A stretch of 9,054 nucleotides of DNA from a virus (Duplodnaviria; Heunggongvirae; Uroviricota; Caudoviricetes). The notes under the pieces are model-generated. The model saw only the letters and a program-made list of their open reading frames with translations. It had not been told where the DNA came from and did not search any database. The stretch spans positions 1 through 9,054 of the IMG/VR virus record IMGVR_UViG_2778261179_000015, one strand, 5' to 3'. Below, piece after piece: positions 2,845 through 9,054 of the stretch; position 1 is the first letter of the stretch; every line of letters starts with the position of its first letter. A program made the translations under genes and the position numbers.

Positions 2845-3144
2845 ATGAGAACATATTTATCTGGCTTGACTGCCAGCGGTTATGCACACCCCAAAATTAT
2901 CCCCGGCGCTATTTATCTGGATAAGAACGGTAACAGAGTAACGGTAAAAGAACTGATGTTTGACCGTGTGTATTTTATTCGTGATGGCTATTCATTTCAT
3001 AGTTCGCTGAACGTGGAGATCTTTATTAGCAGATTCAGGCGGGAAATCCCGCTTTCCAGAAATAACCATGTGTCACGTGTGGATGTGGATAAAAAACTAC
3101 AGGAACTGAAAAACATGATTGCCGCGTGGAGAGAGCAGAAATGA
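2845..3144 (+). CDS. Hypothetical protein (99 aa), function unknown
   Basis: SD GGGGA upstream. Its stop overlaps the replication gene start in an ATGA arrangement. No recognisable motif. Confidence 0.6.
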   Translation: MRTYLSGLTASGYAHPKIIPGAIYLDKNGNRVTVKELMFDRVYFIRDGYSFHSSLNVEIFISRFRREIPLSRNNHVSRVDVDKKLQELKNMIAAWREQK

Positions 3145-5264
3145 AAAAAGCGCCAAATTTAAAACACCAGCCGCGTGACAAAATGACGGAAGTCATCATT
3201 TTTGCGGGTAGTGATGCGTGGGCACATGCGAAACAGTGGCAGGAACAGGACGGGCGACTGGCTGGCGATAACGTGCCACCTGTCTGGCTTGGAGAGCAAC
3301 AACTTGCCGAACTGGACAACCTGCAAATCGTACCGGACGGACGCTATCGCGTGCGTCTCTATCAGGCGGGGTTATTGCGTCCGGGGCTTGTTAATACCAT
3401 CGGGCAGAAACTGGCAGTGGCAGGTGTCAGGGATGCTGATTATTACCCTGAAGGAATGCACAGCCAGAAACGGGAGAACTGGCGCGAATATCTGGAACGT
3501 GAACGGGCAGAGCAGGCGGAAAAGAAAAAGGTAGTTGAACTGCCTGTAAAGAAAAAAGAGCCATGCTATCAGGATGATGAATTAAAGCCCCGCGTTGAAA
3601 GTCGCGTCGATGGTGTTTTCTGGGTAACGCCCAAAGTGGATAAGCAGTCAGGCGAAATTATCCGGCCTGAGACGTGGTTATGTTCTCCGCTTGAACTACT
3701 GGGAACGGGGACGATCGGTAAAGAACATTACCGCGTGATGCGCTGGAAAAAATCAGCAAACCATGAAGTCATCACAATGGCGATCCCGTGTGGTGGCATT
3801 GGCGACCGTGACGGCTGGCGGTTACTTAAAGATCACGGGCTGAACGTGACAACCAACGGCAAATACAGGGCAATCCTGGCGGACTGGATGCAGTTAAGCG
3901 GAAGCCATGAGGAATGGCAGTTAAGCACAACAACGGGCTGGCATTTTGGCGCGTACATCATGCCGGACGGTTCGATCATTGGTGATTCTGAAAAACCGAT
4001 CCTGTTTACCGGAAAAAGCGCCGCGATTAACGGTTATTCCGTGGCGGGTACGGCGGAGGGCTGGCGCGAGAGTGTGGCGCGGCTGGCTGGCGGTAATGCC
4101 TCAATGATGCTGGGTGTGGCAACGTCACTGGCAGCGCCTTTAATTGGCCTTGTGGGTGCTGACGGCTTCGGGGTGCATCTTTTCGAACAGTCATCGGCAG
4201 GTAAGACCACCACGCAGAACATCGCATCAAGTTTATGGGGAGAGCCGGACGCACAACGGCTTACCTGGTACGGAACGGCGTTAGGTATCGCCAACGAGGC
4301 AGAGGCGCACAACGACGGGCTGTTACCCCTGGATGAAATAGGCCAGGCCGGAAACGCGCGGGAGGTGTCCACGTCAGCCTATACGTTGTTTAACGGCTCC
4401 GGGAAATTACAGGGGGCGAAGGACGGCGGCAACCGGGAGATAAAACACTGGCGCACGGTGGCAATCAGCACCGGAGAAATGGACGTTGAGACATTCCTCA
4501 AAACGGAGGGGATAAAAGTCAAAGCGGGGCAGCTTGTCCGCCTGCTTAACGTTCCGATGGAAAAAGCCACGCACTTTCACGAATACAGCACCGGAAAGGC
4601 GCACGCAGACGCGTTAAAGGATGCCTGGACAGAAAATCACGGGGCAGCGGGTCGTGAGTGGGTTAAATGGCTGGCAGGCCACCAGCAGGAGGCAAAGGAT
4701 ACGGTAAGGGAATGCCGCGAACGGTGGCGCAACCTGATACCGGAGAGCTACGGCGAGCAGGTCCACCGCGTGGGTGAGCGTTTCGCCATACTGGAGGCCG
4801 CGCTTGTGCTTTCCGGTCATGTAACTGGCTGGGCCGCGCAGGAATGCCGGGACGCAATACAGCATAACTTTAATGCCTGGGTGAAGGAGTTCGGCACGGG
4901 TAACAGGGAATTTAAACAGATGGTTGAACAGGCTGAGGCGTTTTTGTCGTCGTTCGGGTTCAGTCGATACCTTCCTTACCCAAACAGTGATGAACGTGAT
5001 TTACCGATTAAAGACCTTGCCGGATACAGAAAGGGGAGTATCAGAAATGAAGATGATGAGTTCCGTTTTTACACGTTTCCTCATGTGTTTGAGGGGGAGA
5101 TCGCACAGGGATTTAACCCGTCCCACTTTGCCCGCGCGTTGAGTGCTGCCGGAATGCTGGAAGCGGGTAACGATCGCCGTTACAAGAAAAAGGCTCTCGG
5201 CAAAATTGGGGGGAAGCAGCATGTTTTTTACGTGCTGATGTTCCAGCCTGAGGCAGAAGATTAA
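3141..5264 (+). CDS. Replication initiator, putative primase/helicase-type P-loop NTPase (Pri-Rep-like)
   Basis: About 707 aa from the ATG at 3141, with SD GGAGAG 7 nt upstream. The ORF track begins at a GTG at 3126. Walker A motif EQSSAGKTTTQN and Walker B-like motif GLLPLDEIG are present. Size, position after alpA and before an iteron array match satellite replication proteins. Confidence 0.8.
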   Translation: MKKAPNLKHQPRDKMTEVIIFAGSDAWAHAKQWQEQDGRLAGDNVPPVWLGEQQLAELDNLQIVPDGRYRVRLYQAGLLRPGLVNTIGQKLAVAGVRDADYYPEGMHSQKRENWREYLERERAEQAEKKKVVELPVKKKEPCYQDDELKPRVESRVDGVFWVTPKVDKQSGEIIRPETWLCSPLELLGTGTIGKEHYRVMRWKKSANHEVITMAIPCGGIGDRDGWRLLKDHGLNVTTNGKYRAILADWMQLSGSHEEWQLSTTTGWHFGAYIMPDGSIIGDSEKPILFTGKSAAINGYSVAGTAEGWRESVARLAGGNASMMLGVATSLAAPLIGLVGADGFGVHLFEQSSAGKTTTQNIASSLWGEPDAQRLTWYGTALGIANEAEAHNDGLLPLDEIGQAGNAREVSTSAYTLFNGSGKLQGAKDGGNREIKHWRTVAISTGEMDVETFLKTEGIKVKAGQLVRLLNVPMEKATHFHEYSTGKAHADALKDAWTENHGAAGREWVKWLAGHQQEAKDTVRECRERWRNLIPESYGEQVHRVGERFAILEAALVLSGHVTGWAAQECRDAIQHNFNAWVKEFGTGNREFKQMVEQAEAFLSSFGFSRYLPYPNSDERDLPIKDLAGYRKGSIRNEDDEFRFYTFPHVFEGEIAQGFNPSHFARALSAAGMLEAGNDRRYKKKALGKIGGKQHVFYVLMFQPEAED

Positions 5265-5287
5265 CCCCCTGTGTGAGGTGAAAAGTT

Positions 5288-5602
5288 GCGGGTTATGCGG
5301 GTTACTCTGTGTATAAGTGCATTAACTGCATGAATAAAAAGGAAATCAATAACCCGCACGTAACCCGCAAAACGGCAGTTATAACCCGCAAAAGTGCGAT
5401 TATAACCCGCAGATGAATAACAGGAAGTGACAGCAAACAGCCACGCGTAACCCGCAGAAAAAACCCCGTTTGCGGGTTATTTTGAGCATTTTGCGGGTTA
5501 CGCCACGGCTAAACAGTAAACAGTTAATTTTGTAATGTATTGATATTAAGGAATAAAAAATACTTAGCAAGCGAAGATAACCCGCTAACCCGCATAACCC
5601 GC
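5288..5602. repeat. Replication origin: array of about 12 iterons (R)TAACCCGC / GCGGGTTA(Y) flanking AT-rich segments
   Basis: GCGGGTTA orientation at 5288-5296, 5297-5305, 5472-5480 and 5493-5501. TAACCCGC orientation at 5349-5357, 5361-5368, 5381-5389, 5402-5410, 5447-5455, 5577-5585, 5586-5593 and 5594-5602. AT-rich stretches lie at 5505-5576 and 5607-5626. The array starts immediately downstream of the replication gene stop. Confidence 0.75.
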
Positions 5603-5644
5603 ACTGTTTTGTATATATATATACGAAAAATTGAGATCTGAACT

Positions 5645-5887
5645 ATGAAGGCAAACCGCAAACAACCACACTACCGCGCTATTGACCTTACAGAGCACTG
5701 GCTGAGAGTGGCGATAAAAATCATCGACCGAAACACGGGGGAAGGATATGCAAAAGCACATCCCGAACTGATAAGCGCATTCATGACAACGGCAGCTGCA
5801 AACTTTGCCACGTTGACAGAACGGGAGATTGCCGAAGCGGAACAGGTGACAACCATCAACGTTAAAACCGGAGAGCAGACAGCATGA
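5645..5887 (+). CDS. Hypothetical protein (80 aa), function unknown; co-operonic with ssb
   Basis: ORF directly after the origin. Its stop overlaps the ssb start (ATGA at 5884-5887). No recognisable motif. Confidence 0.5.
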   Translation: MKANRKQPHYRAIDLTEHWLRVAIKIIDRNTGEGYAKAHPELISAFMTTAAANFATLTEREIAEAEQVTTINVKTGEQTA

Positions 5888-6306
5888 CAGCACAGATAGC
5901 GGCTTACGGACGGCTGGTGGCTGACCCGCAGTTAAAGACCACCAGCAAGGGTACACAAATGGCGATGGCTAGTATGGCGGTCCCCCTTCCGTGCAGCCAG
6001 GCAGATGACGGAACGGCGATGATGTGGTTATCCGTCCTGGCGTTTGGCAGACAGGCCGACGCACTGGCAAAACACCACAAAGGCGAACTGGTGAGCGTGG
6101 CGGGTAACATGCAGGTAAGCCAGTGGACAGGCCAGAACGGCGAAACGCGGCAGGGCTGGCAGGTTATCGCAGACAGCGTGATCAGTGCGCGAACAGCGCG
6201 ACCGGGCGGCAAAAAAGGCCAGCAGGGGCAGGCCACTGACGCACTGAACAGGGCAAAACAACAGTCGGGGAATGATGATCCGTACGGCGATAATATACCG
6301 TTTTAA
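5884..6306 (+). CDS. ssb: Single-stranded DNA-binding protein (SSB) homolog
   Basis: 140 aa. The OB-fold core aligns by eye with E. coli SSB (IAAYGRLVADPQLKTTSKGTQMAMASMAV and WLSVLAFGRQADALAKHHKGELVSVAGNMQVSQWTGQNGETRQGWQV). A Gly/Gln-rich linker is followed by the C-terminal tip DDPYGDNIPF, resembling the SSB acidic tail ending DDDIPF. Confidence 0.8.
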   Translation: MTAQIAAYGRLVADPQLKTTSKGTQMAMASMAVPLPCSQADDGTAMMWLSVLAFGRQADALAKHHKGELVSVAGNMQVSQWTGQNGETRQGWQVIADSVISARTARPGGKKGQQGQATDALNRAKQQSGNDDPYGDNIPF

Positions 6307-6517: not shown

Positions 6518-7564
6518 ATGAGTATGGTTGACTTATATTCGCCTACACAGCTTGTGCAGGTGGCTAATGCTGAAGATGTGCAAAAAAAATTAAATGCGTT
6601 GTTTACCAGTTTGTTTTTCACTCGCTCGGTAATGTTTGAATCGAGAGACATTATTCTTGATACGATCGACGATCCAAATATCCCGATCGCGGCGTTTTGC
6701 TCTCCTATGGTGGGCAGTAAAGTTTCACGAGATGAGGGATACGAATCAAAAACAATTCGTCCAGGTTATATGAAGCCGAAAAGCAGCATTGATCCAAATA
6801 AGTTAGCTGTGCGCCCTGCTGGTGTGTCACCTGAGCAATACAATGCTTTTGGGGCGCGTAATATTAAAGTTAAACAGGCGATTGTAAATCAGGCTAAAGC
6901 TATTCGTGCACGTATTGAATGGCTTGCTGTTCAGGCAATCACAACGGGGAAAAATATCATTGAGGGCGATGGTATTGAACGTTATGAGCTGGACTGGAAT
7001 ATAAAACCACAAAATATCATCACTCAGTCTGGCGGTACTGAGTGGTCAGGTAAGGATAAAGAAACTTTTGATCCAAATGATGATATTGAGAGCTACGCAG
7101 AATTTAGTGAGGGCGTCACTAATATCATCATTATGGGTGGTAATGTATGGAAGAAATACCGTTCATTCAGAGCGATAAAAGAGGCTTTGGATACCCGTCG
7201 TGGTTCTAATTCCGAACTGGAAACGGCCCTTAAAGACCTTGGTGATTCGGTGAGTTTTAAAGGGTATATGGGCGATGTTGCGATTGTTGTTTACAGCGGG
7301 CGTTATACCGACGAGGACGGAACAGAAAAACATTTCCTTGATCCTGATTTGATGGTGCTTGGCAATACGGCTCTTCAGGGGATTGTCGCCTATGGCGGTA
7401 TTCAGGATCCGGAGCTAATCCGAATGGGGCTGACTAAAGCCGAACTTGCACCGAAAAACTATATTGTGCCTGGTGATCCGGCTATTGAATATGTGCAGAC
7501 ACATTCAGCACCACAGCCAATACCGGCCCGCATCAATCGTTTTGTTACCGTTCGCATTGGCTAA
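6518..7564 (+). CDS. Major capsid protein, phage lambda gpE-like (HK97-fold family)
   Basis: About 348 aa from MSMVDLYSPTQLVQ, which parallels the lambda gpE N-terminus MSMYTT. SD AAGAGG is immediately upstream. Extended similarity to recalled lambda gpE includes ITQSGGTEWS, KEALDTRRGSNSELETALKDLG and GDVAIVVYSG. The ORF track starts earlier at 6437, probably upstream of the true start. Confidence 0.85.
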   Translation: MSMVDLYSPTQLVQVANAEDVQKKLNALFTSLFFTRSVMFESRDIILDTIDDPNIPIAAFCSPMVGSKVSRDEGYESKTIRPGYMKPKSSIDPNKLAVRPAGVSPEQYNAFGARNIKVKQAIVNQAKAIRARIEWLAVQAITTGKNIIEGDGIERYELDWNIKPQNIITQSGGTEWSGKDKETFDPNDDIESYAEFSEGVTNIIIMGGNVWKKYRSFRAIKEALDTRRGSNSELETALKDLGDSVSFKGYMGDVAIVVYSGRYTDEDGTEKHFLDPDLMVLGNTALQGIVAYGGIQDPELIRMGLTKAELAPKNYIVPGDPAIEYVQTHSAPQPIPARINRFVTVRIG

Positions 7565-7573
7565 GGGGGAGCA

Positions 7574-7915
7574 ATGGCTACTCATTACACTGAACTCATG
7601 GCTGGCACTGAAGCACTGGTGACTACGCTGGGGATATTTTCAGCTAATAAAGGGGTAATTCCTGCATTTACGCCACTGATGCAGGAAGATGCAACAGGTG
7701 CACTGGTGGTATGGGATGGTTCGAGCGTAGGTAAAGCGGTTTATGTTTCCGCTGTACAAATCGACACAGCGAAAAAAACACAGGCACAGGTTTATAAGAC
7801 AGGTGTTTTAAATGTTGATGCTCTGAACTGGCCTGAGTCTGTAAAAGAACTGTCGGCAAAGGTTGCCGCGTTTGTTGGCTCAGGTATTTCTGTTCAGCCG
7901 CTGGCTCGTGTGTAA
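7574..7915 (+). CDS. Head decoration protein, phage lambda gpD-like
   Basis: 113 aa. The segment TPLMQEDATGALVVWDGSSVGKAVYVSAVQIDTAKKTQAQVYKTGVLNVDALNWPE parallels recalled lambda gpD (TPLMLDTSSRKLVAWDG...FYKSG...LWPE). SD AGGGGGA upstream; lies 10 nt after the capsid gene stop. Confidence 0.8.
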   Translation: MATHYTELMAGTEALVTTLGIFSANKGVIPAFTPLMQEDATGALVVWDGSSVGKAVYVSAVQIDTAKKTQAQVYKTGVLNVDALNWPESVKELSAKVAAFVGSGISVQPLARV

Positions 7916-7926
7916 AGGGGGATACA

Positions 7927-8310
7927 ATGCAGAATCATTACAATGACCTTAAGCCAATTGCCGAAATGATGTATCCGGATCCAGCAGTAGAGGAATTAAA
8001 GGCTATTGCTGACAAAATGCGTTTAAGTGAACGCCTTGTTGATATGAATCAGGTGATGGAACTTACTACCCTTAGCCGTCGCACATTGCTAAACCTTGAG
8101 GCTCGCGGAGAGTTCCCCGAACGCGTACAGGTTACGGAAGGGCGTAAGGCCTGGTATTTAAGTGAAGTGATCGACTGGATAAACAATATTCCTCGATCTT
8201 CTGAATATTGCCGCGTACCTGTCCCAAAAAAGCCAGATGCGGCGCTATGCCTCAAGATTGAGCGTGTACGTCGCAATGCACGGGATGGTCGCTATAAGTT
8301 GATTGGTTGA
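7927..8310 (+). CDS. AlpA-type HTH domain protein (127 aa) with N- and C-terminal extensions; putative regulator or DNA-specificity factor
   Basis: The central segment MNQVMELTTLSRRTLLNLEARGEFPERVQVTEGRKAWYLSEVIDWINN matches the AlpA/excisionase-type HTH pattern and resembles the alpA product at 1661-1870. SD GGGGG 5 nt upstream. The gene ends about 25 bp before the cos core. Confidence 0.7.
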   Translation: MQNHYNDLKPIAEMMYPDPAVEELKAIADKMRLSERLVDMNQVMELTTLSRRTLLNLEARGEFPERVQVTEGRKAWYLSEVIDWINNIPRSSEYCRVPVPKKPDAALCLKIERVRRNARDGRYKLIG

Positions 8311-8335
8311 TGAAATTAGGGCCCGTTCTGGCTGG

Positions 8336-8400
8336 CGGGTCCTTTCCGGCGATCCGGTAGGCTACGGGGCGGCGACCTCGCGGGTTTTCGCTATTTATGA
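8336..8400. other. Lambda-type cohesive end site (cosQ-cosN), with the 12-nt cohesive-end sequence GGGCGGCGACCT at 8367-8378
   Basis: Window 8336-8366 (CGGGTCCTTTCCGGCGATCCGGTAGGCTACG) matches the recalled right end of the lambda genome (CGGGTCCTTTCCGGTGATCCGACAGGTTACG) with 4 mismatches. Window 8367-8400 (GGGCGGCGACCTCGCGGGTTTTCGCTATTTATGA) matches the first 34 nt of the lambda genome exactly. Similarity is lost downstream of 8400, in the presumptive cosB (8401-8500). Confidence 0.85.
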
Positions 8401-8511
8401 GCCTTTTTCGGGTGCTGGTGGTGGTTTTGTTGTTCGCTCTATCTCTATGAATAAAAAGGAAAAGATAAAGCCAATACACCAACCTGAAACATTACTTAAG
8501 TGGGGATATTG

Positions 8512-9054
8512 ATGAAATCGCACCTGATGAACAAAAAAAACATGGCGCAAAGCTGCCGTGTAAGTGCGACAGCGTTCGACAAGTGGGGAGTGACTCCCGT
8601 TGAACGTAAAGGCCGCGAGGCGTTTTATGATGTTGCCAGCGTAATAGACAATCGGGTTAGCAATGCAATTAACCAGATTACAGACGACAAAGGCGAGATT
8701 GATAATGATGAGCTTTTGCGAGTCAGGATCAGATTGCTGACAGCGCAGGCGGAGGCGCAGGAGCTTAAAAACGAGCGCGAACGCGGCGATGTGATTAGTA
8801 CGGAATTTTGTATATATGCGCTTTCAAAACTGGCGAGTCAGATTTCTTCAATCATGGGCAGCCTGCCGCTTACTATGCAAAGGAGCTTCCCACAGATGAC
8901 CCCCGCCATGCTGGATGGCCTGAAAAAAGAAGTTGTCAGAGCCTGTAACGCATGCACAAAACTTGATGAAAACATCCCGCGAATGCTGTCCGATTATCTG
9001 ATGGAAACTACCGGAAATGTGCCTGATAAGTTTCAGCCGGATAAAGACAAGTAA
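8512..9054 (+). CDS. terS: Terminase small subunit, phage lambda Nu1-like
   Basis: About 180 aa from the ATG at 8512, with SD GGGGA upstream. Alternative starts exist at 8527 and 8542, and the ORF track begins at a GTG at 8500. The C-terminal two thirds (RLLTAQAEAQELKNERERGDVISTEFCIYALSKLASQISSIMGSLPLTMQRSFP...LDENIPRMLSDYLMETTG) parallels recalled lambda Nu1 (RLTRAQADAQELKNARDSAEVVETAFCTFVLSRIAGEIASILDGLPLSVQRRFP...LDELIPGLLSEYIEQSG). The N-terminal DNA-binding region is more diverged. The gene lies immediately downstream of cos, as in lambda. Confidence 0.85.
   Translation: MKSHLMNKKNMAQSCRVSATAFDKWGVTPVERKGREAFYDVASVIDNRVSNAINQITDDKGEIDNDELLRVRIRLLTAQAEAQELKNERERGDVISTEFCIYALSKLASQISSIMGSLPLTMQRSFPQMTPAMLDGLKKEVVRACNACTKLDENIPRMLSDYLMETTGNVPDKFQPDKDK

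Follow-up and report, generated by a model that had tools for sequence, protein, structure and literature searches.

A two-unit iteron array 3' of a DUF927 initiator-helicase gene as the probable replication origin of an E. coli PICI

Results

The stretch of DNA analysed here (hereafter the window; 9054 bp) spans a phage satellite from the start codon of its integrase gene to the stop codon of its small-terminase gene. The genes follow one another in the order int (1-1239), AlpA (1661-1870), DUF4222 (2845-3144), Rep (3141-5264), a set of repeats, ORF80 (5645-5887, plus strand, PHROG 1231), SSB (5884-6306, plus strand; Pfam SSB, E 1.7e-15), capsid, decoration protein, a second AlpA-like HTH protein and TerS (8500-9054, PHROG 57). 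Judged from this content and order, the window is an E. coli PICI of about 10 kb laid out like the prototype EcCICFT073, and the two elements are syntenic (int 78%, ORF85 92%, SSB 69%, MCP 55% and decoration protein 54%). The arrangement is that of the Gram-negative PICIs, with int-alpA-rep-ori-morphogenesis/packaging genes, a dedicated att site and a size of ~10-15 kb: in the closest complete genomes, at 98.2% identity, the element is an island of ~10.3 kb lying between cspD/yljB and clpS. Moreover, the cf-PICI EcCIEDL933 has a rep-origin-SSB block with 86% identity to the one in the window.

Some further features of the window deserve a brief description. The region 6524-9054 encodes a lambda gpE-like major capsid protein, a gpD-like decoration protein, the AlpA-like HTH protein and TerS and carries no portal, protease or TerL gene, which corresponds to a partial morphogenesis set as in EcCICFT073. 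The int-alpA intergenic region (1240-1660) has 30-34% GC and accounts for four of the ten least stable 41-mers in the window; presumably it is here that the island is regulated. The 214-aa plus-strand ORF at 1881-2525 is probably not a gene; in close relatives, the annotation of this stretch shows a YlcI/YnfO gene on the minus strand and a short Icd-like gene.

The rep gene (3141-5264, plus strand) encodes a 707-aa DUF927 initiator-helicase, the PICI "Pri-Rep", with a variable N-terminal part of ~145 aa, a conserved AAA+ core with the Walker A motif SSAGKTT, and a specificity-determining C-terminus. The protein matches Pfam DUF927 (E 2.5e-48) and PHROG 1139 "DNA primase" (E 2e-181), while its core matches the SaPI initiator-helicase in PDB 8tch (E 1e-14) and also 5dgk (Cch). 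RefSeq annotates the same CDS in two of the loci that we compared (L001 and L173). The C-terminal ~120 residues (4908-5261, plus strand), the putative iteron-recognition domain, probably form a winged helix, as suggested by a structural model of the C-terminal third of Rep that matches 8tch, 5dgk and the winged-helix protein TcpK, with a pLDDT of 40-70 in the relevant part. A profile search with this C-terminal domain (CTD) against PDB sequences found nothing, and an AF2 prediction of the CTD alone (22 sequences; pLDDT 53) was too poor for use. The N-terminal domain (3141-3575, residues 1-145) is hypervariable, forming at least six clusters at 75% identity, and has been shuffled without regard to either the near-invariant core or the CTD. 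It matches the PHROG "DNA primase" profiles in part only, and it is the only part in common with the P4-family Pri-Rep of EcCICFT073 (62% over 160 aa). Whereas this latter protein matches TIGR01613, no such match was found in the Rep of the window, and we are thus not dealing with a P4-family replicon.

The 380-bp gap between the rep ORF and the 80-aa ORF that starts at 5645 (5265-5644) is occupied by an array of repeats. The word TAACCCGC is present in 12 exact copies, all of them within 5288-5602; no other exact copy exists in the 9054-bp window, for which base composition predicts ~0.25 copies. When one mismatch was allowed, the word had 24 matches vs 7.2 +/- 2.6 in shuffled sequences, none of the 200 shuffles reaching 24. 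Of the 12 exact copies, 11 are part of the longer 9-mer TAACCCGCA. The minus strand carries four copies (5288, 5297, 5472 and 5493) and the plus strand eight (5350, 5361, 5382, 5403, 5448, 5578, 5586 and 5595), which bears out the initial annotation of this DNA, where some 12 nine-bp iterons in both orientations had been reported. The start-to-start spacings are 9; 11, 21, 21; 45; 24, 21; and 8, 9 bp, so that the 21-bp period ascribed to a part of the array holds for three intervals, and the first iteron begins 24 bp 3' of the rep stop codon (5262-5264), that is, immediately 3' of the initiator gene, as had also been claimed. Between the opposed iteron sets lie two spacers (5305-5349 and 5501-5577), each of them 69% AT vs 52% for the window. 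These are AT-rich tracts bracketed by iterons, in keeping with the earlier description; the (TA)6 run at 5612-5623, in contrast, is outside the brackets, just 3' of the last repeat.

An Rfam search of 5150-5750 had P9 as its sole match (E 0.68), which is at chance level and thus does not indicate a known RNA. A consensus scan of the array region found no sigma-70 promoter, and the four minus-strand "terminators" obtained by scanning are iteron pairs read as hairpins and hence uninformative. A literature search for the iteron word returned unrelated primer sequences only, and the supplementary files of the 2018 PICI paper contain no iteron sequences in text form.

The array is made of two units. 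Module A (5288-5410) has a left arm of two tandem minus-strand iterons with a 9-bp period, directed away from the spacer (5288-5304), a 45-bp spacer (5305-5349) that ranks tenth among the least stable 41-mers of the window, and a right arm of four direct plus-strand iterons at 11, 21 and 21 bp (5350-5410). Module B (5448-5633) starts with a plus-strand bridge iteron (5448-5455), placed head-to-head with the copy at 5472 across a 16-bp spacer, followed by a left arm of two inverted, minus-strand iterons 21 bp apart (5472-5500), a 77-bp spacer (5501-5577), a right arm of three direct plus-strand iterons at 8-9 bp (5578-5602) and a tail, TGTTTTGTATATATATATACGAAAAATTG (5605-5633), which ranks third among the least stable 41-mers of the window. 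The bridge in this form is found only where A and B are fused, its equivalent being inverted in the islands in which they are split, while the triplet of the right arm is common to the fused and the distal B. The tail accompanies module B everywhere, next to A or far from it, in origins of class 0 as well as of class 1 (see below for the classes), and it could act as a promoter element or as one more tract that melts readily. In a duplex-stability scan, the least stable 41-mer of the whole window was 5522-5562 (dG -40.9 vs a mean of -56.1, sd 4.7), which lies in the B spacer and makes this spacer the best candidate for the DNA-unwinding element. The tract TATATATATA, to which this role had been given previously, is easily melted and conserved, but as an appendage of module B outside the brackets, and is the poorer candidate of the two.

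Inside the module A spacer, beside the left iteron pair, there is a relaxed match to a DnaA box (TTATACACA, 5308-5316, minus strand), and a perfect one (TTATCCACA) is found at the same place in origins of the L005 type. The window contains four matches vs 0.96 expected. The box occurs in the E. coli class-0 origins and is absent from the class-1 and Salmonella origins; since it is not conserved across the classes, we have left it out of the mechanism proposed below.

We gathered ~100 loci with relatives of Rep from E. coli genomes, IMG/VR, metagenomes and other assemblies; a profile search of genome contigs with the Rep alignment gave 2 loci only, and the scans of IMG/VR and of the metagenomes supplied loci instead. 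The iteron of each locus was taken, with no prior assumption, as the most repeated 8-mer in the 450 bp 3' of the stop codon. The three clusters formed by the CTD (C-terminal 110 residues) coincided with three iteron classes in 88 of 88 loci: TAACCCGC(A) in 63, GGGACAAC/G in 16, and TGAACCAAC in nine from Klebsiella, which have a 946-aa Rep. Four finer CTD variants had words of their own, namely TAACCCGT, TAACCCAC (Salmonella and Plesiomonas), GAGACAAC and TGAACCACG (Raoultella). Whereas the word varies among all of these in ~90 related loci, the number and orientation of the repeats and the 9 / 11-21-21 spacing are constant: every class has two or three inverted copies with a 9-bp period ~24-47 bp past the stop codon, an AT-rich spacer of 45-55 bp and four direct copies at 11-21-21 bp, and the offset from rep is similar in the ~90 relatives. 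This last spacing was seen in 54 TAACCCGY loci and 11 GGGACRAS loci, as well as in the TAACCCAC, TGAACCACG and TAACCCGT origins. Within class 0 (35 distinct sequences), the iteron columns vary less than the spacer columns (minor-allele fraction 0.032 vs 0.093, p = 5e-4).

A natural domain swap points to the probable determinant of the iteron word. The Reps of L003 and L008 are 96.5% identical at the N-terminus (147 columns) and 97.1% identical in the core (448 columns) but only 35.5% identical over the last ~120 columns, and their origins have TAACCCGC and GGGACRAC, respectively, at equivalent positions. More generally, the N-terminal clusters 0, 1, 2 and 4 each pair with both CTD types, and the iteron tracks the CTD in 74 of 74 loci. 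Neighbouring genes behave differently: ORF80, SSB and DUF4222 are 95%, 97% and 91% identical between islands with different iterons, while DUF4222 and AlpA can be as little as 37% and 52% identical between islands with the same iteron. ORF80 is thus not the specificity determinant, and we found the iteron word to co-vary neither with the N-terminus or core of Rep nor with any gene nearby. As the compared loci are related to one another, independent events are fewer than these counts suggest; it is the mosaicism that provides independent evidence, at least four N-terminal backgrounds carrying both CTD types. Together, these comparisons argue strongly that the repeats are the recognition sites of the Rep C-terminus, and the co-variation suggests that each set of iterons is specific to its cognate Rep.

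Module A lies next to rep in all the loci compared, while module B is either fused to A or distal. Many relatives have only module A between rep and SSB. In six of seven such islands from complete genomes, a cognate B is present 8.1-10.9 kb downstream, the exception being truncated by IS1. Overall, a cognate B with its tail, 7.7-10.9 kb downstream and close to the right-hand end of the island, was observed in L108 and L109, in four of five complete-genome islands chosen regardless of B (the fifth being the one cut by IS1), in nine IMG/VR contigs and in L165, where the contig end trims B to its left arm. Conversely, no distal B was found in the islands in which A and B are fused (this window, EDL933 and others). 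The fused form, with the same geometry, is present in at least four iteron classes, and is therefore ancient rather than recently duplicated. A module B in every island was considered, but this did not hold for several IMG/VR contigs, and what we say on the distribution of B is accordingly based on complete genomes only; no B was present in the available sequence of four IMG/VR contigs with module A (L147, L152, L155 and L164), which are predicted-prophage fragments and possibly truncated. We do not claim that B is obligatory, and it may be dispensable. Since B is fused in some islands and 8-11 kb away in others, we infer that it is a separate cis element bound by the same Rep. In the E. coli complete genomes, A-like sequences are present in 245 of 5426 and B-like sequences in 300 of 5426. 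ORF80 was considered as a partner of module B and rejected, EcCICFT073 having a 92% identical ORF and no B tail.

Some B modules do not correspond to the Rep of their own island. The L008 island, located between tRNA-Pro/yejM and yejO, encodes a class-1 Rep C-terminus and has its own fused origin of GGGACRAC iterons, and yet 6.6 kb downstream (L008 7209-7360; NZ_CM143727.1) it carries a B module with class-0 TAACCCGC iterons, flanked by a PerC gene and a Panacea-domain gene. Orphan B modules in similar contexts were seen in dozens of E. coli genomes. The L008 orphan could be either a relic of recombination or a site responding to the Rep of another satellite.

Discussion

The SaPI origins lie immediately downstream of rep and consist of 6-12 iterons, with at least two to either side of an AT-rich centre and the two sides oppositely oriented; Rep is a self-loading helicase that reads them by way of a winged helix in its C-terminal domain (PMC9371898). 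The same origin design has been reported for the E. coli PICIs, where a fragment with pri and ori from EcCICFT073 kept a temperature-sensitive plasmid only if both pri-rep and ori were intact, and autonomous replication with rep and ori has been demonstrated for EcCICFT073, SaPIbov1, SaPI1 and EfCIV583 (PMC6092414). The gap 5265-5644 shares with the origins of SaPIbov1, SaPI1, SaPI5 and EcCICFT073 its position 3' of rep, the opposed iterons around an AT-rich region, an initiator that is, or in the window is predicted to be, a helicase and, as far as co-variation indicates for the window, the reading of the iterons by the C-terminal domain, all in a phage satellite with integrase and AlpA. The opposed arrangement is present not once but twice (two minus and four plus copies in A; two minus and three plus in B). 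We consider it highly probable that 5265-5644 is the vegetative replication origin of this PICI, with two units whose iterons would be read by the Rep C-terminus and with a SaPI-like mechanism. The proposal that the array is where the initiator binds the origin is hence strengthened by the co-variation, the conserved geometry and the match to the SaPI/PICI design, while the notion of a single array needs revision: the grammar is that of an origin, but there are two origin-like modules, the second of which is separable and lies kilobases away in related islands.

Origins of this kind are not new, those of E. coli having been described in 2018. What appears to go beyond the published text that we found is the explicit correspondence between CTD and iteron, with at least seven specificities, as well as the fused vs split organisation of the two modules and the orphan, non-cognate B modules. 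The probable origin and its putative specificity determinant are hereby placed for a replicon found in roughly 5% of the complete E. coli genomes (245-300 of 5426) and shared with the model cf-PICI EcCIEDL933. On a common scaffold, nature offers at least seven pairings of a Rep C-terminus with a 9-bp iteron; they constitute a set for decoding how this initiator family reads DNA, and they might be usable for orthogonal small replicons. In addition, the existence of fused and split forms of A and B offers a simple genetic test of whether a second cis site is needed, as it is in P4.

By analogy with the SaPIs, replication could proceed as follows. The DUF927 Rep, acting as a hexameric initiator-helicase, would read TAACCCGCA with its last ~120 residues, which probably fold as a winged helix. 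Opposed iteron sets flanking an AT-rich spacer would place Rep assemblies face to face, the hexamers docking by their C-terminal domains on the two sets and melting the spacer without a separate loader. The helicase would then load itself, unwinding would proceed in both directions, and the island SSB, a likely accessory of origin melting, would take over together with the host replisome. The 21-bp spacing would put sites on one face of the helix, while the tandems at 8-9 bp would allow contiguous occupancy. Module B could provide a second place of initiation, or it could act like the crr of P4 as a site for enhancement or pairing.

Several known systems resemble this one in part. With respect to the SaPI and PICI origins, the iterons of the window are longer (9 bp vs 5-6 bp) and there are two complete origin-like units in tandem, the second of which is detached by 8-11 kb in relatives; EcCICFT073 differs further in its P4-family primase-helicase (TIGR01613) and its GGTAGAYA iterons. 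The iteron plasmids (pSC101, R6K, P1 and RK2) have direct repeats of 17-22 bp in one orientation and a WH-WH Rep that recruits the host DnaB, in contrast to the 9-bp words in both orientations found here and the initiator that is itself predicted to be the helicase. No Rep_3 domain was found in the window, and the origin has only one relaxed DnaA-box match; the words in both orientations and the lack of a Rep_3 domain rule out an origin of the Rep_3 plasmid type. The Cch/Cch2 proteins of SCCmec (DUF927, MCM-like) belong to a cassette chromosome and not to a phage satellite, and we know of no iteron origin defined for SCCmec. Phage P4 has short 8-bp iterons at two separate cis sites several kilobases apart, and crr is needed in cis. 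The islands in which A is separate from a distal B look like P4 ori/crr in this respect, while the window, with its fused modules, is different. The P4 α protein is a multifunctional primase, helicase and origin-binding protein with a C-terminal winged helix (PMC2777425), and crr has been named as the P4 ori site (PMC6092414).

How the two modules divide the work is the point on which the readings diverge. One tentative reading, possible but short of probable, is a bipartite origin in which the rep-proximal A cooperates with a position-independent, Rep-binding B, analogous to P4 ori/crr but with a different initiator family; if this were so, an orphan B of another class would enable a satellite either to react to the Rep of a co-resident one or to titrate it. 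A serious competitor, to which we would give a little less than an even chance, is that only module A is the origin and that B (5448-5633) is an accessory Rep-binding element and not a start site, for instance an element with an enhancing or pairing role like that of P4 crr, a site of copy control through handcuffing or incompatibility, or a promoter region controlled by Rep. This fits the invariable attachment of A to rep, the flexible position of B and its absence from some contigs, and the orphan, non-cognate B of the L008 island, as well as the conserved non-iteron tail, in which TG-TATATA resembles an extended -10 element, and the location of B directly upstream of ORF80-SSB in the window. 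However, B has the full grammar of an origin and the least stable DNA of the window, while the A spacer is shorter and more stable than that of B. As for a promoter region in particular, the consensus scan gave no promoter, and a distal B is not followed by an island gene in the integrated state.

Two readings would deny the repeats a role in replication altogether. The array stands between two co-directional gene blocks, directly upstream of ORF80, and the island encodes two AlpA-like HTH proteins, so the repeats might be operators through which AlpA or another HTH transcription factor of the island controls an ORF80-SSB-capsid operon. Yet the word follows the Rep C-terminus alone and shows no co-variation with AlpA, DUF4222, ORF80 or SSB; the same repeats are also present at island ends with no downstream gene, and the design is that of characterised SaPI/PICI origins. 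We regard this as very improbable. More improbable still is that the repeats are a packaging site, pac or cos-adjacent, for the island TerS. TerS proteins often bind short repeated sites and the island does encode one (8500-9054), but the repeats co-vary with Rep and are 3 kb from terS, and identical iterons are found in islands with unrelated packaging modules: the window has a PHROG 57 TerS and a lambda-type capsid, whereas EDL933 and L109 have a P27-family TerS, TerL and an HK97-type capsid. Both the operator and the TerS readings are therefore contradicted, by the exclusive co-variation with the Rep CTD and by the identity of iterons across unrelated packaging modules, and an origin read by Rep is the interpretation that we retain.

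The islands that carry this replicon or a related one have other features worth recording. Some cf-PICIs with a related replicon are inserted inside the terL gene of a resident prophage, the split halves of which flank the element (L109, 1833-2861 and 18111-18854; L174, 5136-5879), and another cf-PICI, L175, is inserted in yifB/comM. Finally, three large co-directional hypothetical genes of ~2.5, 2.1 and 2.8 kb stand between PerC and module B in some of the islands that have the same replicon (L108, 10949-18296; L176, 2830-10177; and the equivalent regions of L177 and L178), a cargo that may be a defence system.
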